Part shown: positions 1,944 through 17,900 of the stretch, one piece after another | Layout of the letters: every line of letters starts with the position of its first letter | Numbering within the stretch: the first letter of the stretch is position 1 | Sequence record: NC_070870.1 | Strand: one strand, 5' to 3' | DNA: 64,000 nt | Source of the DNA: Escherichia phage phi G17 | The notes under the pieces: model-generated | Databases searched by the model: none | The model's input: the letters and a program-made list of their open reading frames with translations, nothing else | Told to the model about the DNA's origin: nothing | Position numbers and translations under genes: made by a program

Positions 1944-2568
1944 GCAGAAACTTGCTGCAAAAGGTGGTGCAGTGGGAGGAGTTGTCGCTGCTATTCTGGG
2001 GGCAGTGTTCTATATGGAGGGGGGATACGTAAACAATCCTCGTGACCCAGGTGGGGAAACTAATCATGGTATTACTCATTCGGTAGCTAAGACTCATAAA
2101 GAAGTTCTGGCTACTGAGTATGGATGGGATGGTTCCATGAAAGGCTTATCAAAAGAGATGGCTGCTGAGATATACATTGATGACTACGTACTTAAGCCTA
2201 ACTTCGTAGCCTTCGCTGATATATCCCCTGCTGTAACACACAAACTGGTTGATGCTGGTGTTAACACTGGTGTATCCCGTCCGGCTAAGTGGTTGCAGTT
2301 ATCTCTTAATGAAATGTCCCGTGATGGCAAAGACTACCCTAAAGTACAAGTTGATGGTAAAGTCGGTGCAGGTACTGTTAATGCATATAAAGCATTACAG
2401 AAAAAACGAGGCAAAGTTGCAGCATGCCAGGTAATGATTAAGTTACTTGATGCTAAACAACTGAACCACTACACCTCATTGAACATGCCAGACTTTACAT
2501 ACGGTTGGGTAGCTAACCGAATTGGCAATGTGCCACTGGAGGCATGTAATGAAGATGCTAATCTCTAA
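1933..2568 (+). CDS. endolysin, GH108-type N-acetylmuramidase with C-terminal peptidoglycan-binding domain and SAR-like N-terminus
   Basis: EGGYVNNPRDPGGETNHGIT matches the GH108 catalytic signature; Gly/Ala-rich weakly hydrophobic N-terminus (GGAVGGVVAAILGAVFY) typical of signal-arrest-release endolysins; strong SD AGGAGG before the ATG. Confidence 0.8.
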   Translation: MKAKQKLAAKGGAVGGVVAAILGAVFYMEGGYVNNPRDPGGETNHGITHSVAKTHKEVLATEYGWDGSMKGLSKEMAAEIYIDDYVLKPNFVAFADISPAVTHKLVDAGVNTGVSRPAKWLQLSLNEMSRDGKDYPKVQVDGKVGAGTVNAYKALQKKRGKVAACQVMIKLLDAKQLNHYTSLNMPDFTYGWVANRIGNVPLEACNEDANL

Positions 2569-3049
2569 AGGTTGGCCTTATCTTCTGGTGGTGGTCCTTG
2601 GGGCCACCATTTACTTTTGGGGTAATTCCAACGGACAGTCTACTGTTCAAAAGAAGTGGGATGACCAAAAGGTCGAAGACCTGAAGGCAACACAAAAATT
2701 ACAGGACAAATACAATGCTCTCCAAAGAAACCATAGTTATGAAGTCGGGTTACTCACTTCCCGGTTGCAGACGGCTGAGAGTAATTACGCAAGCGAGCTT
2801 GCTCGCGTTAGCAGTGATTACGACAGCCGGATGCAACAGTCTGAAAGACGAGCATCGATATATCAACGTCAAGCCGAAGCCGGAACCCTTGAGTGCAGAA
2901 GTCTTGCAAGCCATGCAACCAGACTCGACAATAGTCTTGAAGAAGGCAGACGTTTGGTTGAAGAACTCCGGGCAACTGTTAGACTCCGTGACAACCAACT
3001 AATTGAGTTGGGTAAACAAATTCAGGCTGACCGTAAACTTTTTGAATAG
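2549..3049 (+). CDS. i-spanin (Rz-like)
   Basis: Start [24 protein letters not shown] has an N-terminal TM followed by a long charged coiled-coil; GGAGG SD; overlaps endolysin stop; contains embedded o-spanin. Confidence 0.6.
2739..3002 (+). CDS. o-spanin (Rz1-like lipoprotein) embedded in +1 frame of Rz
   Basis: [32 protein letters not shown]: signal peptide with lipobox-like TTAGC, Pro-rich mature part; entirely inside the Rz ORF in another frame. Confidence 0.5.
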   Translation: MKSGYSLPGCRRLRVITQASLLALAVITTAGCNSLKDEHRYINVKPKPEPLSAEVLQAMQPDSTIVLKKADVWLKNSGQLLDSVTTN

Positions 3050-3057
3050 GAATAACT

Positions 3058-5328
3058 ATGGAACACCAAGACACTTTTAAGCCTTTACCAGACCCGGCTC
3101 AATCAGAGAAGCTAACAGACTGGGCGAAGGAACCAAGTATCCAATTACTGAAGGGTGATTTGGAATCTGCTAAACCTGCTCATGATGCCATTATGACACA
3201 GATTCGTGAGTGGAATGACTTGATGGAAATCAAGGGTAAGGCTAAACCCCCAAAGGTTAAGGGACGTTCGCAAGTCCAACCTAGACTGGTTCGTCGTCAG
3301 GCAGAGTGGCGATATGCACCATTATCTGAACCTTTCCTCTCATCTAGTAAACTCTTTAAGTTAACCCCGGTTACTTTTGAAGATGAGTTAGCTGCACGAC
3401 AGAATGAATTAGTTCTTAACTACCAATTCCGTACGCAACTTAATAAAGTAAAACTGGTGGATGATTACGTACACAGTGTCGTAGATGACGGTACTGGAAT
3501 TGCTCGTATTGGTTGGGAACGTAAGACTGTTAAGATTAAAACAGAAACACCAGTCTTCCAGTTGTATCCAATTGAGAACCAGGAACAGGCAGATGTTCTT
3601 CAACAGGCTTTACAACTTCAGGCAGAGAACCCTCGCGAGTATGATGAAACTATGCCAGAAGATATTAAAGAAGCTGTTAACTACTTTAATGAAACTGGAG
3701 AAGCTACCTATGCAATCCAGACAGGGGTTACTGAGGTAGAAGTAGAGAAGGCACTGGTTAACAGACCTACTGTTGAAATGCTTAATCCCAATAACGTAGT
3801 TATTGACCCAAGCTGTAATGGTGATTTGGATAAAGCTCTGTATGCAGTTATCTCGTTTGAGACATGCAAAGCAGACCTCATGAAGAACAAAGACCGTTAT
3901 CACAACTTAGATAAGATTGACTGGGAAAGTTCTAGTCCTATGACTGACCCAGACCATGAAAGTAAAACTCCAAGTGACTTCCAGTTTAAGGATTCACTTC
4001 GTAAGAAAGTGGTTGCCTACGAGTACTGGGGATTCTACGACATCAATGATGATGGTTCGCTGGAACCAATTGTTGCTACCTGGATTGGTTCCACTCTTAT
4101 TCGTATGGAGAAGAACCCTTTCCCTGACGGTAAGTTACCTTTGGTAGTTGTTCCATACATGCCACGTAAACGTGAACTCTTTGGCGAAGCTGATGCTGAA
4201 CTGTTAGGAGATAACCAAGCTATTCTTGGTGCAACTATGCGAGGGATGATTGACCTGTTGGGTCGAAGTGCAAATGGGCAACGTGGTTATCCTAAAGGGA
4301 TGTTGGATACATTGAACCGTCGTCGATATGACGATGGGCAAGACTATGAATACAACCCAATGCAGGGTAATCCTAGTCAGTCCATTATGGAACATAAGTT
4401 CCCTGAGCTACCACAGTCGGCAATAGTAATGACCCAGATGCAAAACCAGGAAGCAGAATCACTAACTGGTGTTAAAGCATTCTCCGGTGGTGTAACTGGT
4501 TCAGCTTATGGAGATGTGGCTGCCGGTATTCGTGGTGCACTTGATGCAGCATCTAAACGTGAGATGGCAATCCTTCGTCGATTGGCTAAAGGTATGGCAG
4601 ACATTGGTACTAAGATTTGTGCAATGAATGCTGTGTTCTTATCCGAGAAGGAAGTAGTACGTATTACTAACGAGCAGTATGTAGAGATTAACCGTGAAGA
4701 CCTTAAAGGTAACTTCGACATCGAGGTTGATATTAACACTGCTGAAATTGATAACCAGAAATCCCAGGACTTGGGCTTCATGGTTCAAACGTTAGGTAAC
4801 ACAGTTGACCAAAGTATTACGTTATCTCTCGTAGCTAAGATTGCAGAACTTAAACGTATGCCTGACCTTGCACATGAGTTACGTACTTGGCAACCACAAC
4901 CAGACCCTATGGAAGAACAACTTAAGCAATTGGCAATTCAGAAAGCACAGCTTGAGAACGAAGAGTTGCAAAGTAAGATTGCACTCAATATGGCTAAGGC
5001 TAAAGAGGCTGCTTCTGCTGGTGACCTTAAGGACCTGGATTATCTGGAACAAGAATCTGGTACTAAACATGCTCGTGATATGGAGAAACAAAAAGCACAA
5101 TCTCAAGGAAACCAGAACCTTCAGATAACTAAGGCATTGACAACACCTACCAAAGAAGGTGAAACTACCCCCAACATATCTGCTGCTGTTGGATATAACA
5201 CTTTGACTAATGGGAACTCTCCGCAAGAACGTGACCTAGCTGCTCAGCAAGACCCAGCTTATTCACTTGGTTCCCAATACTATGACCCTAGTCAAGACCC
5301 ATCATCGGCTCTTGGCATGAACCTGTAA
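3058..5328 (+). CDS. portal protein (N4 gp59-like)
   Basis: 756 aa, size and position (after lysis genes, before scaffold/capsid) match the N4 portal as recalled; acidic C-terminus. Confidence 0.65.
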
Positions 5329-8924: not shown

Positions 8925-9767
8925 ATGATTATGTCTTGTTCTGCTGAGGTAGAAGCTAACCGACTCCTAGAAGAGTTGACTAAGGGTGATGACTTTACCC
9001 TTCCTGATATTGATATGTCCGGCCCTGAATGGGATATCCCAGGTGGGGATGATTCCCCAATCTTTGGTGCTATTACCAAAGTAACTAATGAATCCCTTAC
9101 TACCCGTGAAGTAGGGGGTAGTGGTACGTTCGATGCATTAATGGAATCTGCACACAACCATCTTAAAGCTGAGTTTAAAGCTAACCGTATTACCGGTGGT
9201 GAATATACCAAGGCATATATTGCTATGATGGAATCTTGCATGGGTAATGCTGTTCAGTTCTTACTTGGTCGTGACCAAGCATACTGGGCTGCTGCTATGG
9301 CACAGATTCAGGCAGTTACTGCACGTGTTCAACTGGCAACTTCTAAGGCACAGTTTGTACTGGCTAAGATTCAGGCACTGTCTGCTAAGAGTGAATATGC
9401 CCTTACTAAGATGAAGATTGCTACCGAGTCTGAAACATACTGTGCTGCATTGTTTAATGCTAATCAGATGTTACCTCAACAGCTTAAGCTGATTACAGAA
9501 CAGACCGAAGCACAACGTGCACAGACTCTGGATACCCGTACTGATGGTACTGCCGTTAAAGGTTCTGTAGGTAAACAGAAAGAGTTGTACACCCAACAGA
9601 TTACTTCTTACCAACGTGATGCAGAAGTTAAAGCATCTAAGCTGTTTACTGATGCATGGATTACACAGAAGACTATTGATGAAGGCTTGAACCCACCTAA
9701 TGGTTTCACTAACGCAAGTATTGATACCATTCTGACCAAGCTGAAGTCTAACAACGGGCTGAACTAA
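8925..9767 (+). CDS. virion structural protein (N4 gp54-like by position)
   Basis: 280 aa, coiled-coil rich; synteny. Confidence 0.45.
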
Positions 9768-9768
9768 T

Positions 9769-12411
9769 ATGGGCTTATTCAGTGGGAAGACCAAAGTATA
9801 CGTAGCATCCTCTGTCTATAACATGGCAGGGGATATACAGAAACGTCCAAACTATATGAAGACTGTAGTCATAGGTAAGATTGTTGCTGATACAGGATTC
9901 ACTATGGCAGACACTATCTCCGATAGTTATCTGAATGGGCCAGGTATTCGTATGCGACTGTTCTCTAGCTGGAGTAAGAACCACTATGACTCAGTAGTTG
10001 GTATGGCAGGTTCTTCATTAGGTGTACTAGCTAAGATTGACCCTACTGTTATAGAGGGACAAATTACCCCACCTGCTGGAGAATCTGTATATGTTCAGGC
10101 AGCAGAGATTGGCTTTGCTGACTTTGAACAATGGTGTGACCAGTATCTTTATGAGAATGCCCCTAGTCGAATCATGGAACGATTCGACGTAGACATTGAC
10201 GAAGATACCAATGAAATTACTATGACCTCCTTAGATGGAGGTTCTACTATTACATTCACACCTGCTAACTTTGAACCAGGTGCTTTGTATCTCTATGCTG
10301 ATTACACATTCTATAAGTCTCCATCTACCAATCCACCGGTAGTAGGGCCGACTACTGTATATGATAATGAGGATGACTTACCGTCTACTTTATTGTGGAC
10401 TACCATTTCAAGTGATACGACTGCTAATACAACCAACCTTACTAAGACTATACAGACTCATTCTGTTTACTCTGATGGTAGGCCGGATGAAGACAGTACT
10501 GTTACTGAACCAAGTGTGGATAACTGGAACTCCTACGTTAAGGTTTATCGTAGAGGATTCACTGAGAAACCTGATGATGTAACTGTAGTTGTATCCGACA
10601 GGGTAATGACTCATACAAAGTTTGGTGAGATTCAAACCAGTACTGCTGTAACTACCAATGTTGTTGATTTAGGTGGGGGTGTTACCCGTACTGACACAAT
10701 CACTACAACTACAGAGACGCTGGTTCGTAAGTACTCATCCCAGACTACCCGTACTGATACTGAGATGACTGCTGTTGGTACACCTAAGATGCTTATCTAT
10801 AAGCAGAACTCTGGTAACGTTGCACTTGATTCACTGTTTGAGACTGAAGCTACCGATAACCGATTCTACCCATTCATTCCAATCAGGAATGATAAACAAT
10901 GGGTAGAGAATGACCCAATCTACCCATACTGTAAGAAGGCTCTCTTTAAAGCTACCGGTGGTAAAATCAATACAGTAATGACAGAGCTTAAGAAGAACGA
11001 TGACATAGATGATATTCAGTACATCTATGGTTCATTCGGAGTATCTCTTAATACTCCAGAGGATACTGCTAAGGAATACATCTACCGTTTCTTTCAGATG
11101 GCTACTGAAGCATTTCCACCTGACCCAACCTACCCTACATTGGAAGCAGTGATTGCAGGTTATCAGGCAGCAAATGATGCAGTTGATGAATATGTAGAAT
11201 GGTGGAACAGACAGGAAGGTCAGATTGTTGGAACACCTCCACCACTCCCGGAATACCCTGTCATACCTAAACGAGAGTTTAGGGTACATAGTAATAAGCA
11301 GTACAAGTACGACATGACTATTGGCTGGAACTATGTATCTGAAACTACTCATTCAGGTGAAGCATGGTCTGGTGCTAAGCAGGGACAACTTCGAGCCAGA
11401 TATGCAGGAGATATAACTCTTACTCGCAAGAACATACGTACAGGTGCTAACAACAAACTGGAAGTTACTACTACGTTTTACTCTATGCAGGAGTACGAGT
11501 TACTTTGGCAGGATGGTAATGACACTTACCGTAAACTTAGAGTACTGGGTCTAAATCACAATAACAGGGTATACAAAAATAAATCAGTAAGTATTGACGT
11601 TGCCGAAGCAATGGGTGATGCAGAAGAGAGTGGTTTCATTATTCCACTGCACACTAACATCTACCGTTCAATGTCACTGGTTCGTAGTACCCAATTGTCT
11701 ACTGCTTGCTCTTACTTAGTGATGAACTCATATAAGAAGGTTAAGCAGAAATGGTATACATCATCAGCCTTTAAGATTGTGGTTGTTGTAGTTGCTGTTG
11801 TTGTATCCGTATTCACTATGGGTGCTGGTGGTGCAGGTATTCTTGGGGCATATGGTGCAGTTGGTGCATCACTTGGTTTTGTTGGATTAGCTGCTGTAAT
11901 AGTGGGTGCTGTAGCAAACGCCATTGCTGCAATGATTCTGGTATCCATCATCACTAAAGTATCCACTTCACTGTTTGGTGATAAGCTGGGCTTTATTGTT
12001 GCAGCTATTGCTTCAATGGTGGCTATGAACGTTGGTACTGCTATGTCTACTGGAACATCCTTATCCACCTTAGCTGGTGAAATGATGAATGCCCAAAACA
12101 TCATGCAGCTTACTAGTTCAGTAGGTAATGGTATTAGTCAGTATATTAATGCATCCACGGCTGCTACTATTCAGAAAGCAGAGAGTGTAATGCAGCAGTA
12201 CAATACTGATATGATGGCAATCAATAAGCAGTATGAAGAAATGTTTGGTACTGCTGGTCAAGGTGTAATTGACCCTATGCAATTCGTGTCAATGGAGTCG
12301 ATGGATTCTTTCCTCTCACGTACTCTCATGACTGGTTCAGATATAGCTGACATGTCCCTTAACATGGTTGGAAGCTACTCTGATATGACTCTTAATACTG
12401 ACCTCGTTTAA
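9769..12411 (+). CDS. large internal virion protein with C-terminal multi-pass hydrophobic region (N4 gp53-like by position)
   Basis: 880 aa; C-terminal 150 aa is Gly/Ala/Val-rich with several predicted TM helices (VVVVAVVVSVFTMGAGGAGILGAYGAVGASLGFVGLAAVIVGAV); start overlaps previous stop. Confidence 0.5.
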   Translation: MGLFSGKTKVYVASSVYNMAGDIQKRPNYMKTVVIGKIVADTGFTMADTISDSYLNGPGIRMRLFSSWSKNHYDSVVGMAGSSLGVLAKIDPTVIEGQITPPAGESVYVQAAEIGFADFEQWCDQYLYENAPSRIMERFDVDIDEDTNEITMTSLDGGSTITFTPANFEPGALYLYADYTFYKSPSTNPPVVGPTTVYDNEDDLPSTLLWTTISSDTTANTTNLTKTIQTHSVYSDGRPDEDSTVTEPSVDNWNSYVKVYRRGFTEKPDDVTVVVSDRVMTHTKFGEIQTSTAVTTNVVDLGGGVTRTDTITTTTETLVRKYSSQTTRTDTEMTAVGTPKMLIYKQNSGNVALDSLFETEATDNRFYPFIPIRNDKQWVENDPIYPYCKKALFKATGGKINTVMTELKKNDDIDDIQYIYGSFGVSLNTPEDTAKEYIYRFFQMATEAFPPDPTYPTLEAVIAGYQAANDAVDEYVEWWNRQEGQIVGTPPPLPEYPVIPKREFRVHSNKQYKYDMTIGWNYVSETTHSGEAWSGAKQGQLRARYAGDITLTRKNIRTGANNKLEVTTTFYSMQEYELLWQDGNDTYRKLRVLGLNHNNRVYKNKSVSIDVAEAMGDAEESGFIIPLHTNIYRSMSLVRSTQLSTACSYLVMNSYKKVKQKWYTSSAFKIVVVVVAVVVSVFTMGAGGAGILGAYGAVGASLGFVGLAAVIVGAVANAIAAMILVSIITKVSTSLFGDKLGFIVAAIASMVAMNVGTAMSTGTSLSTLAGEMMNAQNIMQLTSSVGNGISQYINASTAATIQKAESVMQQYNTDMMAINKQYEEMFGTAGQGVIDPMQFVSMESMDSFLSRTLMTGSDIADMSLNMVGSYSDMTLNTDLV

Positions 12412-12424
12412 CAGGAGAATCCTC

Positions 12425-12868
12425 ATGGATTTGTCATTCTTAACAGGCAACCAAACCCCACAGCCAGCGGCTATGTCTTGGATGTCTAATAACAACCAGA
12501 ACTTTAATACCCCAGCTATGAGCTATAACCCAGGTGCAGCTATTGGTATGGGTGCAGATACAGGAGTAGCCTCCCCTACTTCTTTCTTGTCTGGTTCAGC
12601 TAATCAGTTGGGCATGAACGTACCTACCTTCCAACTAGGACTGGGTGCACTTGGTTCATTAGCTAATATCTATGGTGGTTTCCAGGCTAACAAGTTAGCC
12701 AAAGACCAGCTGAATTTTACTAAGAGTGTTACTAACACTAACCTGAATAATCAGATTAAGTCTTATAACACTGCACTGGAAGACCGTGCTCGTAGCCGTG
12801 CTACGGCAGAGAACCGTGACCAGACTTCGGCTGATGCGTACATTGCAGCTAATAAACTAACTCGTTAA
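12425..12868 (+). CDS. hypothetical virion protein
   Basis: 147 aa, Gly/Asn/Ala-rich; synteny with virion module. Confidence 0.4.
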   Translation: MDLSFLTGNQTPQPAAMSWMSNNNQNFNTPAMSYNPGAAIGMGADTGVASPTSFLSGSANQLGMNVPTFQLGLGALGSLANIYGGFQANKLAKDQLNFTKSVTNTNLNNQIKSYNTALEDRARSRATAENRDQTSADAYIAANKLTR

Positions 12869-12880
12869 TAGGAAACCATC

Positions 12881-14836
12881 ATGAGCCAGATAACATGGAG
12901 AAATGTTGATGCACCTAACTTCTCTGGAGTTGGTGACAGCATTCGCACATTTGGCAGCATGATTGGTAACGCTACCTCCGGCTTGAGTGATGCACTGGGT
13001 AATTTCCAGAACGCTGCCAAGCAGGAGGCCGGCAATGCCGTCATGATGAATGCTATGCAATACCAAGACCCGAATGAGTACCGTAATGCTTTAGCATCCG
13101 GTGCATTGTTTCAGGGGGTTGACCCTTCACTAGTAAACCAGCGTACTCTCCAGAATCTGGATGAACGTGCAGGTACATTACTGACTCAACAAGGACAGCA
13201 GGGAACCAATGACTACAATGCCTATCGCTTTGGTCGTTTACAGGATACTAACTCTGCATTAGATAATGCTTCCCCTGCTATTCGTTTGCTGTCTGAGGCT
13301 TATCAGTCCGGTGACCAGAGCCGTATTAATGCAGCATTGGGACAGACTCGTGAGGCACTGTCTGCTCTCCCTGCTGACCAGCAACTTGAGATGCTGGGTC
13401 GTCTGCAAGGGCAAGGTGGTCAGGCTATTGGTCAGGCACAGAACCGTTTTGATTTGGGTGTTGCTCAACGTAATGATGCTGATAGTCAGGCAGCTATGGG
13501 TGTAATGTCACAGATTACCCGTGGTGCTGAGAACCCTAATGATGCTCGTCTGTTGGCTGAAGCATACAGTAAGAACCTGTCTCCAGTTGCACAAGCACGT
13601 TTGCAGGGATTACTGGCTAGTGCTTACCCGGGTGTATACGGTAACGGTGTTGGTGCTGCTTCTGCACCAGGTACTGCTGGTACTCGTCAGGGTTCTCCTT
13701 ATGATGTTACTTACCAGTTTGCTGGTACATCCACTCCTATTACTCAAATGAGTATTGGTGATGTAATCAAACACCAGGAAGGTATGAAGACGAACCAAGG
13801 TGCTTCACCTGTTGGTGCATTCCAGATTAACCAAGCTACCCTACAAGACTTCGCTCCCAAAGTTCTTGGTTCAGATTGGCAAAGCCAGCCACTCTCTGCT
13901 GAGAACCAGGATAAGATTGGTAAGGCTATCTTCGAACAGCGTAAGAATGGCAACCTTAAAGATACTTGGGCTGCACTTCCTAATGCTGGTGTTGGTGCTT
14001 ATAAAGACATGACATGGGAAGAGATTAAACCAATCATTGCACAAGCAGAAGTTGGTGCTAATCCATTGGCTATGCGGCAGACTGCACAAGGCAACCAAGC
14101 CGTATCTACCTTGGCTCAAGGTATGATTGGTACTCGTTCTATGCAGGATAACACCGGCAGTCTTAACACTGACTTCCTTGGTACAGTCACTGATAATACC
14201 CCGGTAGGTGAGATTACTAACCGTCTGTTGGAAGGTGACTTTAAAGGTGCTGACCGTAACTGGGTACTGAACCGACTGACTGATATTTCTCAACGTGGGA
14301 ATATGTCACCAGCTATGGCTGCTGCTGTTATGCAACGTGCACAGACTGGCGTACCGGAGGGTTGGATTAGTCGTGCCATAGATGGGGTTAACCCATTCAT
14401 TACTAATGAAGCTGGTAATGGTATGCGTCTTAATGACCGTCAGGTAGAACAGTTAATTGAAGGTGTAAAACGAGGTGAACCACTGGAAGGTAGTGTACGT
14501 AACCTTGGACGTGCTCAAGCTGCACAGAGCATTCAGGCAGCACAGACTGCTTATGATGCTGCTGTAGCTGCACTGACTAATACCCAGAACAAGATTAACA
14601 CTGGACAGAGTGGTCTTACTGCACTGTTACCTGCACGACAGGAAGCTGTTACTAGAGCTGCTGCAATGCTCCAGGCTGCACAGGCACAAGTACAAGCTGA
14701 CCCAGCTAACCTGGCTCCAAGAGGTTTCCAGTCACAGTCTAGTGTGGACCGGGCACGAGCTAAGGAAGATGAAGAACGTGCTGCACGGTACTTACGTCAG
14801 GCACAAGGTTTACCTGAGTATATGCAACCTCGCTAA
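12881..14836 (+). CDS. virion protein with possible lytic-transglycosylase-like (SLT-like) segment
   Basis: 651 aa; segment HQEG...ASPVGAFQINQAT resembles SLT motif (E-S ... G-L-M-Q ... T) imperfectly; immediately upstream of vRNAP. Confidence 0.4.
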   Translation: MSQITWRNVDAPNFSGVGDSIRTFGSMIGNATSGLSDALGNFQNAAKQEAGNAVMMNAMQYQDPNEYRNALASGALFQGVDPSLVNQRTLQNLDERAGTLLTQQGQQGTNDYNAYRFGRLQDTNSALDNASPAIRLLSEAYQSGDQSRINAALGQTREALSALPADQQLEMLGRLQGQGGQAIGQAQNRFDLGVAQRNDADSQAAMGVMSQITRGAENPNDARLLAEAYSKNLSPVAQARLQGLLASAYPGVYGNGVGAASAPGTAGTRQGSPYDVTYQFAGTSTPITQMSIGDVIKHQEGMKTNQGASPVGAFQINQATLQDFAPKVLGSDWQSQPLSAENQDKIGKAIFEQRKNGNLKDTWAALPNAGVGAYKDMTWEEIKPIIAQAEVGANPLAMRQTAQGNQAVSTLAQGMIGTRSMQDNTGSLNTDFLGTVTDNTPVGEITNRLLEGDFKGADRNWVLNRLTDISQRGNMSPAMAAAVMQRAQTGVPEGWISRAIDGVNPFITNEAGNGMRLNDRQVEQLIEGVKRGEPLEGSVRNLGRAQAAQSIQAAQTAYDAAVAALTNTQNKINTGQSGLTALLPARQEAVTRAAAMLQAAQAQVQADPANLAPRGFQSQSSVDRARAKEDEERAARYLRQAQGLPEYMQPR

Positions 14837-14852
14837 AATACTTCATACTAAT

Positions 14853-14877
14853 AAAAGCCCTCCGGGGCTTTTTTCTT
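14853..14877 (+). terminator. rho-independent terminator
   Basis: AAAGCCC-TCCG-GGGCTTT hairpin followed by TTTTCTT. Confidence 0.65.
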
Positions 14878-14921
14878 ACACTGGCTTACTGTAGAGTAGG
14901 CTTCCTATATACGATATAAGT

Positions 14922-17900
14922 TTGAACAGGAAACATGCTATGTCAACATTTGACCGTCTGGCAGGTTTCGCAGACAGCATCACTAATGCTAAGCAAGTCG
15001 ATGTCTCTACTGCAACCTCTCAGAAGCAAGCTGCTCAAGGGCAAAGCCCTTTCCAATTAACCCCAGAGAATGCTTACAATCTCCAGACTGGACGAGTAGG
15101 TAATCTTGGAACTGGTGCATTCGAACCAGGTTCACTTCAGGCTGATTTCACTCAAGCCTCTCCATTAGAAATTATTAATAAGTACGGTAATGAGCAAGGT
15201 CTACAGATTCTTAATAGCCGAGCTAATGCTGCTGATGTTGTACGTCAGGACTTATCTAAACAGCGTACTAACGCAGAAGCATTTGGCGATACTCTTTCTG
15301 GTGTTGGTCTTGGTGTTGCTAATACCCTTGGGGGCATTGCTGCTCTTGGCACAGGTCTGGTCAATGATAATGCCGGGGCATCCATTGCTTCCGGGATGGA
15401 TTGGCTGAATGAAGGTGTACGCAATCTCCAGTCTGATGCACTGAACGCTAATCGTAATGTTGTTCAGAATCAGAACCAGATTACTGCACAAGAGAACCAG
15501 AAACTTTACGAACAAGATATTAAGAATGGGGAGAATGACTTAGTTGCCTCCTTGTCTCGCATTGGTCGTGACGCTTTTGATTCTGTTGCTAATACACTTG
15601 ATAATGGTATGGCTGCTTCCGATGGACTGAGTGAAGGCATTGGTTCCCTCTTTACCGGTGGCCCACTTATCCGTGGTGTATCTGCACTTGGTAAAGTAAT
15701 GGTAGGAGGTGATAAAGCTGTTAAGGGTATTACCTTAGCTGCTGAGTTAGGTTCACGTCCTGCACAGGTTGCACTGTCTGCCGGTCGTGTTGCTGCACCT
15801 GCTGTAGCAATCGGTGGTATGGAAGCTGGTGGTGCATACCAACAGACTGCTTCTGAAATCATGAAGATGTCCCATCAAGAATTGGCAAGTAAGTCTCCTG
15901 TTTACCAACAACATATTGCTGATGGTTTATCTCCTGATGAAGCACGTCGTCAGACTGCATCTGAAACAGGTATCACTGCTGCTGGCTTAACTGCTCCAGT
16001 TGCTGCTGCCACCGGTCCACTGGTATCTCGCTTTGAACTTAACCCACTTAAGGTAGGTTCACTGGCAGGTGCTGGTTCTAATATGCTGCGTGAAACAGTT
16101 GAAGAAGGTATTCAATCCGGCTTCGGACAGTTCGCACAGAACACTGCAATCAAGGAAAATGTTGATGCATCCCGTGATACCCTCAAAGGGGTCGGTGAAC
16201 AAGCAGGTCTGGGTGCACTCTATGGCTTCGGTAGTGCTGGAGTTGCTCAAGCTCCAGGTGCAACTGTTAAAGCTGCTGGTGCTGCCGTTGCTCCTGCTGT
16301 ACGTACTACCCTGGCTGGTGCTTCTCTGGTTGGTAATGCATTAGCAAAAGCTGCCTCCCCTATTACTAACATCTTGGTTCAACGTGGCGAAGAAGTTGCT
16401 AAGCGTAATGAACAAGCGTCCCCTGTAGCAGATGCTACGGTTAGTGCTGCTGCACAGGAAGCTACTGCTCAGTCAGAACAAGCACAAGCAACTGTACAGG
16501 AAGCAGTAGATGCAATGGACATTACTCCTGAAGAGAAAGCTGCTGCTACTCAATATGCTTCTGACTTAACACAGGCAATGAACTTTGACCCAGTAGAAAT
16601 AGAACAAGCTAATCCAGCAATCCGTGAAGCTGTTTCTGGTTCCACTAACCGTGTAGAAGCTATTCAGAAGATGGCTGACTTGGTTAATACTGCTGAAGAC
16701 CCTAACGTTCAAATGGAAGCTGCAATCCAGATGTATGACAATATTATGTCCATGGATAGCTTCATTAACCGTGACCCGGGTGCTCTGGCTAATCTGGAAC
16801 AAGGTTCTCCTGCTGCTGCAATCGTAGACCAGTTCTCTGGCTTGATGGCTAACGTACAGAATACACCGAAGGTACTTCGTGCATTCCGTGCTATCCATTC
16901 CATGATTCAGGAACAGGCTGAAGCAGGTAAACTGAAAGCTACTGAAGAAGCTAACCAAGCCCAAGCAAACAACATTGCTATGGCTGCTGATGTATCTCCA
17001 GAAGTGCTGGATGCTGATTCAGTGAACATGGTTCTGAAACACGCTAGCGAAGGTAAGATTACTCTGGGGAATCGTCAACGTGCTGCCCTGCAATCGGCTG
17101 CTGCTGTCTTACAGGGTGCACGCGAGTTCGACGCTAAAGCAGAAGAACTAGGCTTACGACCTCAAGACATTGTTAGTAAACAGATTAAGACCGACGAGTC
17201 TCGCTCTAATGAAGGCCAGTACTCTGCGTTGCAACATGCGAAACGCATTCGTTCTGCGTACAACTCTGGTAACTTCGATTTGGCCTCCGCTTATCTGAAC
17301 GACTTTATGCAGTTCGCCCAGCACATGCAGAATAAGGTCGGAGCGTTGAATGAGCATCTGGTTTCGGGGAATGCGGATAAGAATAAGTCTGTTCACTATC
17401 AGGCTCTCTCGCCTTCCCGTGAATGGGTACGTAGTCGTACTGGCCTCGGTGTCAATCCTTACGATACCAAGTCTGTTAAGTTTGCCCAGCAAGTAGGACT
17501 GGAAGCCAAGACCGTAGCTGATATTGCTAACGCACTTGCTACGGCTTACCCGGAGCTTAATGTTTCTCATGTGAATGTTACCTCGTTGGATTCACGTCTG
17601 GACAAGCCAGCTGCCCAGGTAGTTAAAGAGTTCCGTCAAGGTGGTCTTGATGCCACTCAGTCTCAACAGACTAATGAACCAGTGAATCAGGTTGATGAAA
17701 CTCCTGCACCAGTGCAAGAGACTGCCCCCACTGTACAGCCTAAAGCTGAGCCGGTGGTAGAAAATAAACCTGCTCCTACTAAGGATACTAGTTCAAAAAC
17801 AGAAGAAGTCTCTACTACTAAGTCTGAAACAGTGGATGCTACCCTCACTAATGAGGATACCACCCAGGAAGTAGCTGAAACTAAAACGGAAATGGAATCA

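Follow-up and report, generated by a model that had tools for sequence, protein, structure and literature searches.

Gene content of the locus

The interval analysed here, positions 9769-14836 of a 64,000-nucleotide (nt) window (the whole stretch of DNA that was examined) of Escherichia phage phi G17 (NC_070870.1), comprises three close-packed open reading frames (ORFs) on the + strand, which encode proteins of 880, 147 and 651 amino acids (aa) and are flanked by a 280-aa ORF on the 5' side and a 3456-aa ORF on the 3' side. Comparison with phage N4 and with families of lysozymes indicates that this interval probably represents an N4-like module for tail gating and envelope crossing, in which the tunnel protein carries a peptidoglycan-engaging domain derived from the lambda R lysozyme.

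The DNA of the interval is 94.5% identical to that of Shigella phage Moonfish and 91-93% identical to that of PhAPEC5, IME11 and other G7C-like Schitoviridae; the window is a G7C/Moonfish-like member of this family. Searches with the N4 proteins (tblastn) revealed that the window is collinear with N4 from gp63 to gp50, and while the phage belongs to the G7C/Moonfish lineage rather than to that of N4, the gene order gp54-gp53-gp52-gp51-gp50 is identical in both. The 3456-aa ORF aligns over its full length to gp50, the virion RNA polymerase (vRNAP) of N4, with 66% identity. The initial annotation had located the 880-aa and 651-aa ORFs just upstream of the vRNAP gene, and the coordinates given below bear this out; the 147-aa ORF between the two was absent from it.

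The functions of the N4 proteins rest on cryo-electron microscopy, mass spectrometry and bilayer recordings, and structures have been solved for gp53, gp52 and gp51 (PDB 9YFT, 9YF4 and 11MN, respectively; Bellis et al., Nat Commun 2026, PMC13434306). The window proteins exhibit 55% (BLASTP), 57% and 49% identity to gp53, gp52 and gp51, respectively, over their full lengths, and because of this 49-57% identity to the N4 orthologues, combined with strict synteny, we infer the roles of plug, pore and tunnel for them. These gene functions are already known from N4 and are nothing new.

The tail plug

The first gene of the interval (9769..12411, + strand) encodes the 880-aa protein, which matches PDB entry 9yft_FA ('Gp53') with E=0 over aa 1-879 and is assigned to phrog_2220. 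Its C-terminal third, including the hydrophobic region discussed below, also matches the DEV plug (PDB 9ze4_M, E=3e-14). Judging from its sequence, the protein is the orthologue of the N4 tail plug gp53. The proposal that it is an internal virion protein and a subunit of a channel has to be abandoned, as N4 gp53 is a single-copy external tail plug located mostly outside the tail tube (PMC13434306; PDB 9yft), possessing a globular core as well as a beta 'feather' outside the tube. In N4, a hydrophobic knot made of residues 29-56 and 670-716 serves as the cork of the tail tube, about 160 C-terminal residues, unresolved in the structure, lie in the tail lumen beside gp52, the plug density is seen in full and empty particles alike, and the plug is anchored by the receptor-binding sheath gp65 within the tail-gating complex (PMC13434306). 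The tube itself is a dodecamer of gp54 in N4 (PMC13434306). In the window its putative orthologue is the 280-aa tail-tube protein encoded just outside the interval (8925..9767, + strand; phrog_2050, E=2e-117; 66% identity to N4 gp54 in tblastn), whose product is the structure that the plug would cork.

The knot residues of N4 map 1:1 onto the 880-aa protein. The N-terminal part of the knot (aa 29-56) corresponds to positions 9853..9936 (+ strand), and the identity to N4 gp53 over aa 1-40 is 80%. The C-terminal part falls within Gly/Ala/Val-rich hydrophobic helices (aa 667-760; 11767..12048, + strand): Kyte-Doolittle hydropathy in 19-residue windows (KD19) stays at 1.6 or higher across aa 661-760 and peaks at 2.59, a stretch which includes hydrophobic segments of about 20 residues of the classical transmembrane type; Gly, Ala and Val make up 45% of aa 661-780, and charged residues 5%. 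Three consecutive 40-residue blocks of aa 641-760 are 82%, 65% and 78% identical to N4 gp53. The hydrophobic stretch measures about 95-100 residues, which corresponds to 3-4 helices, and it is followed at the C-terminus by ~120 polar residues, among which Met, Ser, Thr, Asn and Gln abound. Hence, where the initial annotation had the protein ending in roughly 150 residues of transmembrane helices, the Gly/Ala/Val-rich stretch is real, but it is shorter and stops some 120 residues before the C-terminus. From the correspondence to N4 we suggest that aa 670-716 form the tube-corking knot and that the rest of aa 667-760 continues into the tail lumen; the hydrophobic helices would thus act as a cork of the tail tube and not as membrane spans in the virion. 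A match of the Pfam family DUF2207_C to this region (E=0.33) was regarded as compositional.

One could also imagine that these helices are true transmembrane segments, which after the release of the plug insert into the outer membrane and nucleate or form a part of the channel. Their strong hydropathy (KD19 up to 2.59, 3-4 segments), the conservation of the hydrophobic region as far as the DEV plug, and the placement of the ~160 unresolved C-terminal residues in the lumen next to gp52 agree with such a role. We consider it improbable, since in N4 empty particles show the plug density just as full ones do, the helices make up the knot inside the tail tube, and one copy per particle is too few for a channel.

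The means by which the plug is held may have diverged. N4 gp64-gp67 (sheath, appendages and adaptor) gave no tblastn match in the window, which terminates within a homolog of gp68 (terminase) and does not extend to the part of the genome concerned. In the Moonfish record, from 61500 to its end at 69166, the gp67-like gene is followed by a single annotated gene, for a 376-aa tail protein, and no gene of the size of gp65 occurs at the syntenic position. It thus seems that the sheath by which N4 anchors its plug, gp65, is missing from the G7C/Moonfish lineage.

The ejection proteins

The 147-aa protein (12425..12868, + strand) matches the '16.5 kDa protein' of PDB 9yf4 (E=1.1e-43), the DEV gp73-like protein of PDB 8vxq (E=8e-5) and phrog_2646. 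Encoded between the orthologues of gp53 and gp51, it is the predicted orthologue of N4 gp52, a small ejection protein, 12 N-termini of which line the tail lumen, which is gone from empty particles, and which makes the outer-membrane pore (PMC13434306). The 651-aa protein (12881..14836, + strand) matches the '66 kDa protein' of PDB 11mn over aa 1-357 (E=1.4e-126) and phrog_6126 (E=0). By the same kind of evidence, and by its position between the gp52 orthologue and the vRNAP gene, it is the orthologue of N4 gp51, which is located around the portal, with which it makes contacts (in DEV also with vRNAP), is gone from empty particles and makes the periplasmic tunnel (PMC13434306). Recombinant N4 gp51 truncated to residues 1-359 (dC-gp51) is a decameric channel with a T7-gp15-like leg fold, in which residues 52-255 are resolved and those beyond 255 are disordered, and both gp51 and gp52 conduct in planar bilayers (PMC13434306). 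The resolved residues map onto aa 52-255 of the window protein (13034..13645, + strand), which would form the helical leg-fold tunnel region.

Transmembrane prediction, suggested with the initial annotation as a check, was positive for the 880-aa protein as described above, whereas the 651-aa protein has no classical transmembrane segment (maximum KD19 of 0.74). The idea that the proteins encoded here are candidates for an ejection channel holds for the 651-aa protein and extends to the 147-aa protein, which it had not mentioned, as these are orthologues of ejected, conducting N4 proteins; it does not hold for the plug.

The same set of proteins has been found in the virions of Moo19, where mass spectrometry identified a 96-kDa protein 'similar to N4's gp53' as well as 16-kDa and 70-kDa proteins, encoded by genes beside the vRNAP gene (PMC11654681). 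The Moo19 homolog of gp51 (P0044, 654 aa) is 77% identical to the window protein. We noticed that Moo19 gp68 (70 kDa, encoded beside the vRNAP gene gp67) is named 'Adaptor' in the same article (PMC11654681); by size, position and sequence it appears to be the gp51 homolog, which may amount to a conflict of naming.

A conserved central domain in the tunnel protein

A phmmer search of 1.84 billion cluster representatives with aa 262-400 of the 651-aa protein (E<=1e-3) matched 417 clusters (at 50% identity), nearly all of them comprising proteins of 550-800 aa in which the matching segment occupies about aa 260-420. When 72 relatives were aligned, only the extreme N-terminus and this central segment proved to be conserved. 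We delineated the domain as aa ~270-395 (13688..14065, + strand). Conservation of individual residues was counted in 151 representatives of 50%-identity clusters: G312, Q343 and E390 are kept in all 151, Q315 and W363 in 150, and T320 in 149. The segment GAFQINQAT, to which the initial annotation had drawn attention (aa 312-320; 13814..13840, + strand), is therefore a real and nearly invariant motif. The AlphaFold2 model calculated from a 73-sequence alignment exhibits a compact domain around it (pLDDT of 92.8, pTM of 0.86); it superseded a first model, built from 17 sequences of at least 69% identity (pLDDT of 70.8), with which Foldseek returned only noise.

N4 gp51 possesses the same central domain, including D277, E296, G314, Q317, T322, Q345, W365 and E392; residues D294 and E390 of the window protein correspond to its E296 and E392. 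The N4 paper is silent on the domain (PMC13434306). The dC-gp51 construct, residues 1-359, equivalent to aa 1-357 of the window protein, ends inside it, which probably accounts for the disorder beyond residue 255. A profile of the family compared with all PDB sequences detected only N4 gp51 and coiled coils, and did not detect DEV gp72.

Relationship to SLT and lambda R lysozymes

Based on GAFQINQAT, the initial annotation had regarded the segment as SLT-like. In its explicit form, this proposal would make the region around the motif a degenerate SLT domain (GH23 family 1) comparable to the N-terminal part of T7 gp16, and E300, the Glu of the HQEG sequence, its catalytic acid. The spacing of the motifs superficially resembles that of ES...GLMQ...AYNAG, and hhalign finds the same register, with GAYQI placed on GLMQL and FTPE-NQ on FDPEQNI. 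However, the alignment of the domain profile to 120 genuine PF01464 proteins is not significant (P=0.099, probability of 0.6%), and the Pfam SLT model has no match in the 651-aa protein (E<=1) or in 73 diverse relatives (E<=0.1). A hidden Markov model (HMM) of the domain scores at most 5.5 bits on the 120 SLT proteins, as compared to a median of 12 on lambda R homologs. E300 is replaced mostly by Arg (56), Lys (48), Gln (14) and other residues among the 151 relatives, and by Asp, Thr, Ser or Ala already among those of at least 69% identity, i.e. the catalytic Glu (E-S) located in SLT about 18 residues before G-L-M-Q is not conserved. SLT entries occur in the Foldseek lists only at E>1.5. Membership in the SLT family is refuted by Pfam, the PDB profile search, hhalign, the variability of E300 and the HMM scores, and we regard even a degenerate SLT as very unlikely. 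T7 gp16 offers a functional analogy, as it likewise has a wall-cutting module on an ejected protein; the N-terminal SLT domain of gp16 (GH23/PF01464, catalytic E37), found in an internal core protein, belongs however to a different family and to a different subunit, the largest ejection protein.

Other families were considered and rejected. One relative matched Pfam PF06737 ('Transglycosylase-like'; E=0.043 and 0.18), as may be expected by chance in 73 scans, and GH24 (T4-like), GH108 and GH73 were dropped in the absence of their motifs (E...D...T, EGGY...D.GG.T and YATD, respectively).

The family that does show similarity to the domain is that of the lambda R lysozyme. PHROG 90 ('endolysin') is matched by 4 out of 73 aligned sequences of the gp51 family; in P0209, P0175 and P0193 the match falls on the central domain (E=1.2e-9, 1.1e-6 and 1.9e-4, respectively) and on profile positions 666-784, which are covered by the match of lambda R itself to positions 651-811 (E=3.9e-62). 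With lambda R, the domain HMM attained 10.6 bits (P=2e-5 as a single comparison), a value that none of 20000 shuffled lambda R sequences reached. In hhalign comparisons, the domain aligned with the single lambda R sequence (P=7.7e-5), with 82 of its close homologs (P=4.6e-7, probability of 92.6%, lambda residues 30-139), in a separate build with lambda-type lysozymes (P=4.3e-6, probability of 86.7%), and with a diverse set of 12 lambda-type lysozymes (P=4e-10, probability of 96.7%), with sequences from phages D3, C1, P37, Rovert, SophiaRose and cp20, a Ralstonia phage and the hub of Anabaena phage A-1(L). A search in the reverse direction, with a narrow lambda R HMM against single gp51 sequences, proved insensitive (best E of 0.012, on an unrelated region) and was not used.

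The similarity extends over lambda residues ~30-139 (58-138 at high confidence) and comprises the common motifs YDV, S-x-A-G-x-Y-Q, F-S/T-P-x-x-Q-D and W-A-S-L-P-G. Typical members of the gp51 family display YDVVYGNG, GTSAVGAYQ, FTPE.QD and TWASLP..PGAY, and the window counterparts of the lambda core motifs are ASPVGAFQ, LSAENQD and WAALP. GAFQINQAT is aligned to 'AGRYQLLS' of lambda R, as the counterpart of G65-R-Y-Q68. On the strength of these alignments, aa ~270-395 are predicted to derive from the lytic transglycosylase fold of lambda R (GH104). Unlike lambda R, which is a free 158-aa lysis enzyme, this domain is a module within a 651-aa ejected structural protein, and it has an extra helix (aa 286-300) inserted after the first strand, ahead of the G-x-Y-Q hairpin. 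Foldseek comparison with BFVD gave, beyond N4-like homologs, a list dominated by wall-degrading virion proteins (TMq of 0.5-0.6): a protein named 'Peptidase M15B' (E=1.4e-4), baseplate hubs of the gp5 type (the phiM12 hub, E=5.9e-4, and a gp5/Vgr-type protein of Atu_ph07, E=2.3e-3), the SAR endolysin transglycosylase of phage Paso (E=0.026, TMq of 0.57), as well as cyanophage proteins of the M23 peptidase, muramidase and 'lysin domain' kinds.

Lambda R itself has no match in Pfam at E<=10 and none in NCBIfam at E<=1. Since its family has no model in either database, the domain is unseen by routine annotation, i.e. GH104 constitutes a blind spot. The precomputed Pfam assignment is likewise empty for the standalone (~158-aa) homologs of lambda R, a classical enzyme with solved structures.

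A lambda-type lysozyme as a wall-penetration module of the virion also has parallels in the hub of Anabaena phage A-1(L), in PHROG 17230 ('tail fiber protein/lysozyme') and in PHROG 28672 (metallo-endopeptidase). In the A-1(L) hub protein (2186-4885) the domain occupies aa ~106-244, with 31% identity to lambda R (E=3e-8), and retains the catalytic Glu (in ASKE-T), which sets it apart from the gp51 family. Klebsiella phage cp20 (Schitoviridae, Efbeekayvirus) encodes at 151-624 a free-standing, full-length lysozyme of the lambda type, which shares 55% identity with lambda R and has the Glu in SEGT; Schitoviridae therefore hold both the complete fold and a copy without the catalytic Glu.

Catalytic residues and the function of the domain

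The general acid of the lambda lysozyme, Glu19, is at the end of helix 1 (A-W-S-E-G-T). It is invariant in the set of 12 lambda-type sequences, including the A-1(L) hub, whereas in the gp51 family the helix that carries it has no counterpart.

This is one of several observations that speak against an N4-like module with a peptidoglycan-engaging tunnel protein. The homology begins only at the YDV strand, and the sequence upstream of it is a linker of Gly, Ala, Ser and Pro; 125 of the 151 relatives have no Glu at positions -8 to -22, and a motif resembling x-E-G/T is present in only 9. The window protein and N4 gp51 contain no E-G/T-like motif upstream of YDV. The authors of the N4 study saw no peptidoglycan hydrolase among the ejection proteins (PMC13434306). 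The window protein itself has no match to PHROG 90, the link being made through members of its family. Foldseek detected no significant match of the domain to solved lysozymes in the PDB (the best were i-type lysozymes, E=1.0, TM-score of 0.3), and the lambda lysozyme is missing among the 50 PDB matches listed. As to the plug, which in N4 is held by the gp65 sheath, a gp65 homolog was found neither in the window, beyond whose ends the respective part of the genome lies, nor at the syntenic position in Moonfish; the gating partner would therefore differ from that of N4.

In the absence of the canonical catalytic Glu the muralytic activity of the domain is not established. The suggestion of peptidoglycan-cleaving features made in the initial annotation survives to the extent that the protein contains a genuine domain of the lysozyme superfamily, but of the lambda R (GH104) type instead of SLT, and one devoid of the canonical acid; the SLT call is wrong in family and right in spirit.

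Two acidic positions merit attention. Position 294, on the extra helix (aa ~286-300), is acidic in 118 of the 151 relatives (Glu in 81, Asp in 37), with Gln in 21 and Gly in 5. The invariant E390 is on the last helix and aligns, with low confidence, to E148 of lambda. It is conceivable, if rather unlikely, that the domain is an active muralytic enzyme that provides the missing wall-breaching activity of the Schitoviridae ejectosome, with E390 or D/E294 as a relocated acid in place of Glu19; it could then be a lytic transglycosylase with a rewired active site, of which 10-12 copies reach the murein during the assembly of the tunnel, a version of the proposal that we hold equally tentatively. 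The strict conservation of E390 and the near-invariance of Q315, Q343 and W363 fit a maintained active-site cleft, and position 294 is mostly acidic. Moreover, the structural neighbors are virion-associated wall-degrading proteins, the tunnel proteins of phiKMV, K1E/K1-5 and Dunnvirinae have active or predicted lysozyme domains, and the murein must be cut by something during infection. On the other hand, a counterpart of Glu19 is absent, position 294 is Gln or Gly in 26 sequences, and the lambda residue to which E390 is tentatively aligned is not invariant among close lambda R homologs.

The family-wide loss of the catalytic helix would also agree with a domain unrelated to the cell wall, kept for protein contacts, with its lysozyme ancestry a mere relic. 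Such contacts could serve e.g. the formation of the tunnel ring, attachment to the portal crown prior to ejection, or an interaction with the N-terminal domain of vRNAP; contacts of gp51 with the portal and, in DEV, with vRNAP are known, and DEV is infectious (PMC13434306) even though its counterpart, gp72, escapes detection by the family profile. We find a role in protein contacts doubtful, and the roles just listed no less so, as the invariant residues are those common to lambda-type lysozymes (G-x-Y-Q, Q-D, W-A-x-L-P), which a new protein interface would not need. Because the catalytic helix has been lost throughout the family, we slightly favour a glycan-binding pseudo-enzyme over both the relocated acid and the relic.

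Proposed mechanism

Combining these results with the N4 data, we propose the following sequence of events. In the virion, the single-copy 880-aa plug would seal the gp54-type tail tube with the knot formed by aa 29-56 and ~670-716, and the following ~160 residues would extend into the lumen. Engagement of the receptor would displace the plug. The 147-aa protein, stored in the tail lumen, would be expelled first and insert into the outer membrane as a pore, followed by the 651-aa protein, which would be stored around the portal and oligomerise into a periplasmic tunnel, through which vRNAP and DNA would pass. As the tunnel crosses the cell wall, its lysozyme-like domain would engage the peptidoglycan, possibly as a pseudo-enzyme which binds glycans and serves to position or anchor the tunnel, or alternatively as a transglycosylase with a relocated acid, for which E390, which is invariant, and D/E294 of the inserted helix, which is mostly conserved, are the candidates.

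Other features of the gp51 family and of the locus

Some members of the gp51 family contain additional regions. In P0257 (872 aa) we found a C-terminal domain of the staphylococcal nuclease type (aa 720-866; PF00565, E=2e-20), aa 729-838 of which match the endonuclease family phrog_452 (E=8e-9); this sequence would be an ejected tunnel protein with a nuclease passenger, possibly aimed at the nucleic acid of the host. In P0263 (744 aa), the N-terminal, non-lysozyme part (aa 2-313) matches phrog_10475 ('endolysin', E=4.5e-15), which may be a family of ejection proteins named for an embedded lytic domain. The NCBIfam RipA model matches aa 509-626 of the window protein (E=5e-4) outside of the NlpC/P60 region of RipA, and this match was rejected as probably reflecting the similarity of coiled coils and not a second muralytic signal.

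Downstream, the vRNAP ORF as called mechanically starts with TTG at 14922, whereas the alignment to N4 gp50 begins with residue 1 at ATG 14940 (MSTFDRL...), which by this comparison is likely the true start. The tunnel-protein gene is thus separated from the vRNAP gene by a gap of 103 nt (14837-14939). The gap contains an 8-bp terminator-like hairpin (14853..14872, + strand), AAAAGCCC-UCCG-GGGCUUUU, followed by U-rich UUCUU (RNA folding energy of -12.1 kcal/mol, z=-2.57), which was not flagged by a scan for consensus terminators. The hairpin could attenuate read-through into the vRNAP gene; vRNAP is needed in about 4 copies, as opposed to 12.

Precedents and implications

Lysozyme domains on tunnel proteins have precedents among Autographivirales: phiKMV gp36 and Ar-KM gp42 have a C-terminal lysozyme domain on a T7 gp15-like tunnel protein, gp35 of K1E and K1-5 is a tunnel protein with a lysozyme domain, and the tunnel protein of Dunnvirinae has a central one at about residue 300, i.e. 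at almost the same position in the chain as in the window protein. The catalytic residues are retained in these domains, which resemble T4 lysozyme or SLT, whereas the one described here is of the lambda type, occurs in Schitoviridae and lacks the catalytic Glu. A literature search found no earlier report of a lysozyme domain in N4 gp51 or of a muralytic activity in N4 virions, an older zymogram result for N4 being possible. What is new, and unreported in the literature searched, is that the tunnel protein of Schitoviridae carries a lambda-type domain from which the catalytic Glu is missing.

The recognition of the domain suggests better boundaries of constructs for structural work on gp51, and it provides residues of N4 gp51, namely D277, E296, Q317, Q345, W365 and E392, as candidates for mutagenesis in the context of wall crossing in a large, therapeutically used family of phages. 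An active domain would represent a lysozyme fold that works without the canonical acid, and an inactive one would represent an enzyme that has been domesticated as a wall-binding spacer. In either case it may bear on how N4-like phages get through the cell wall, and it makes the question of wall crossing directly testable.

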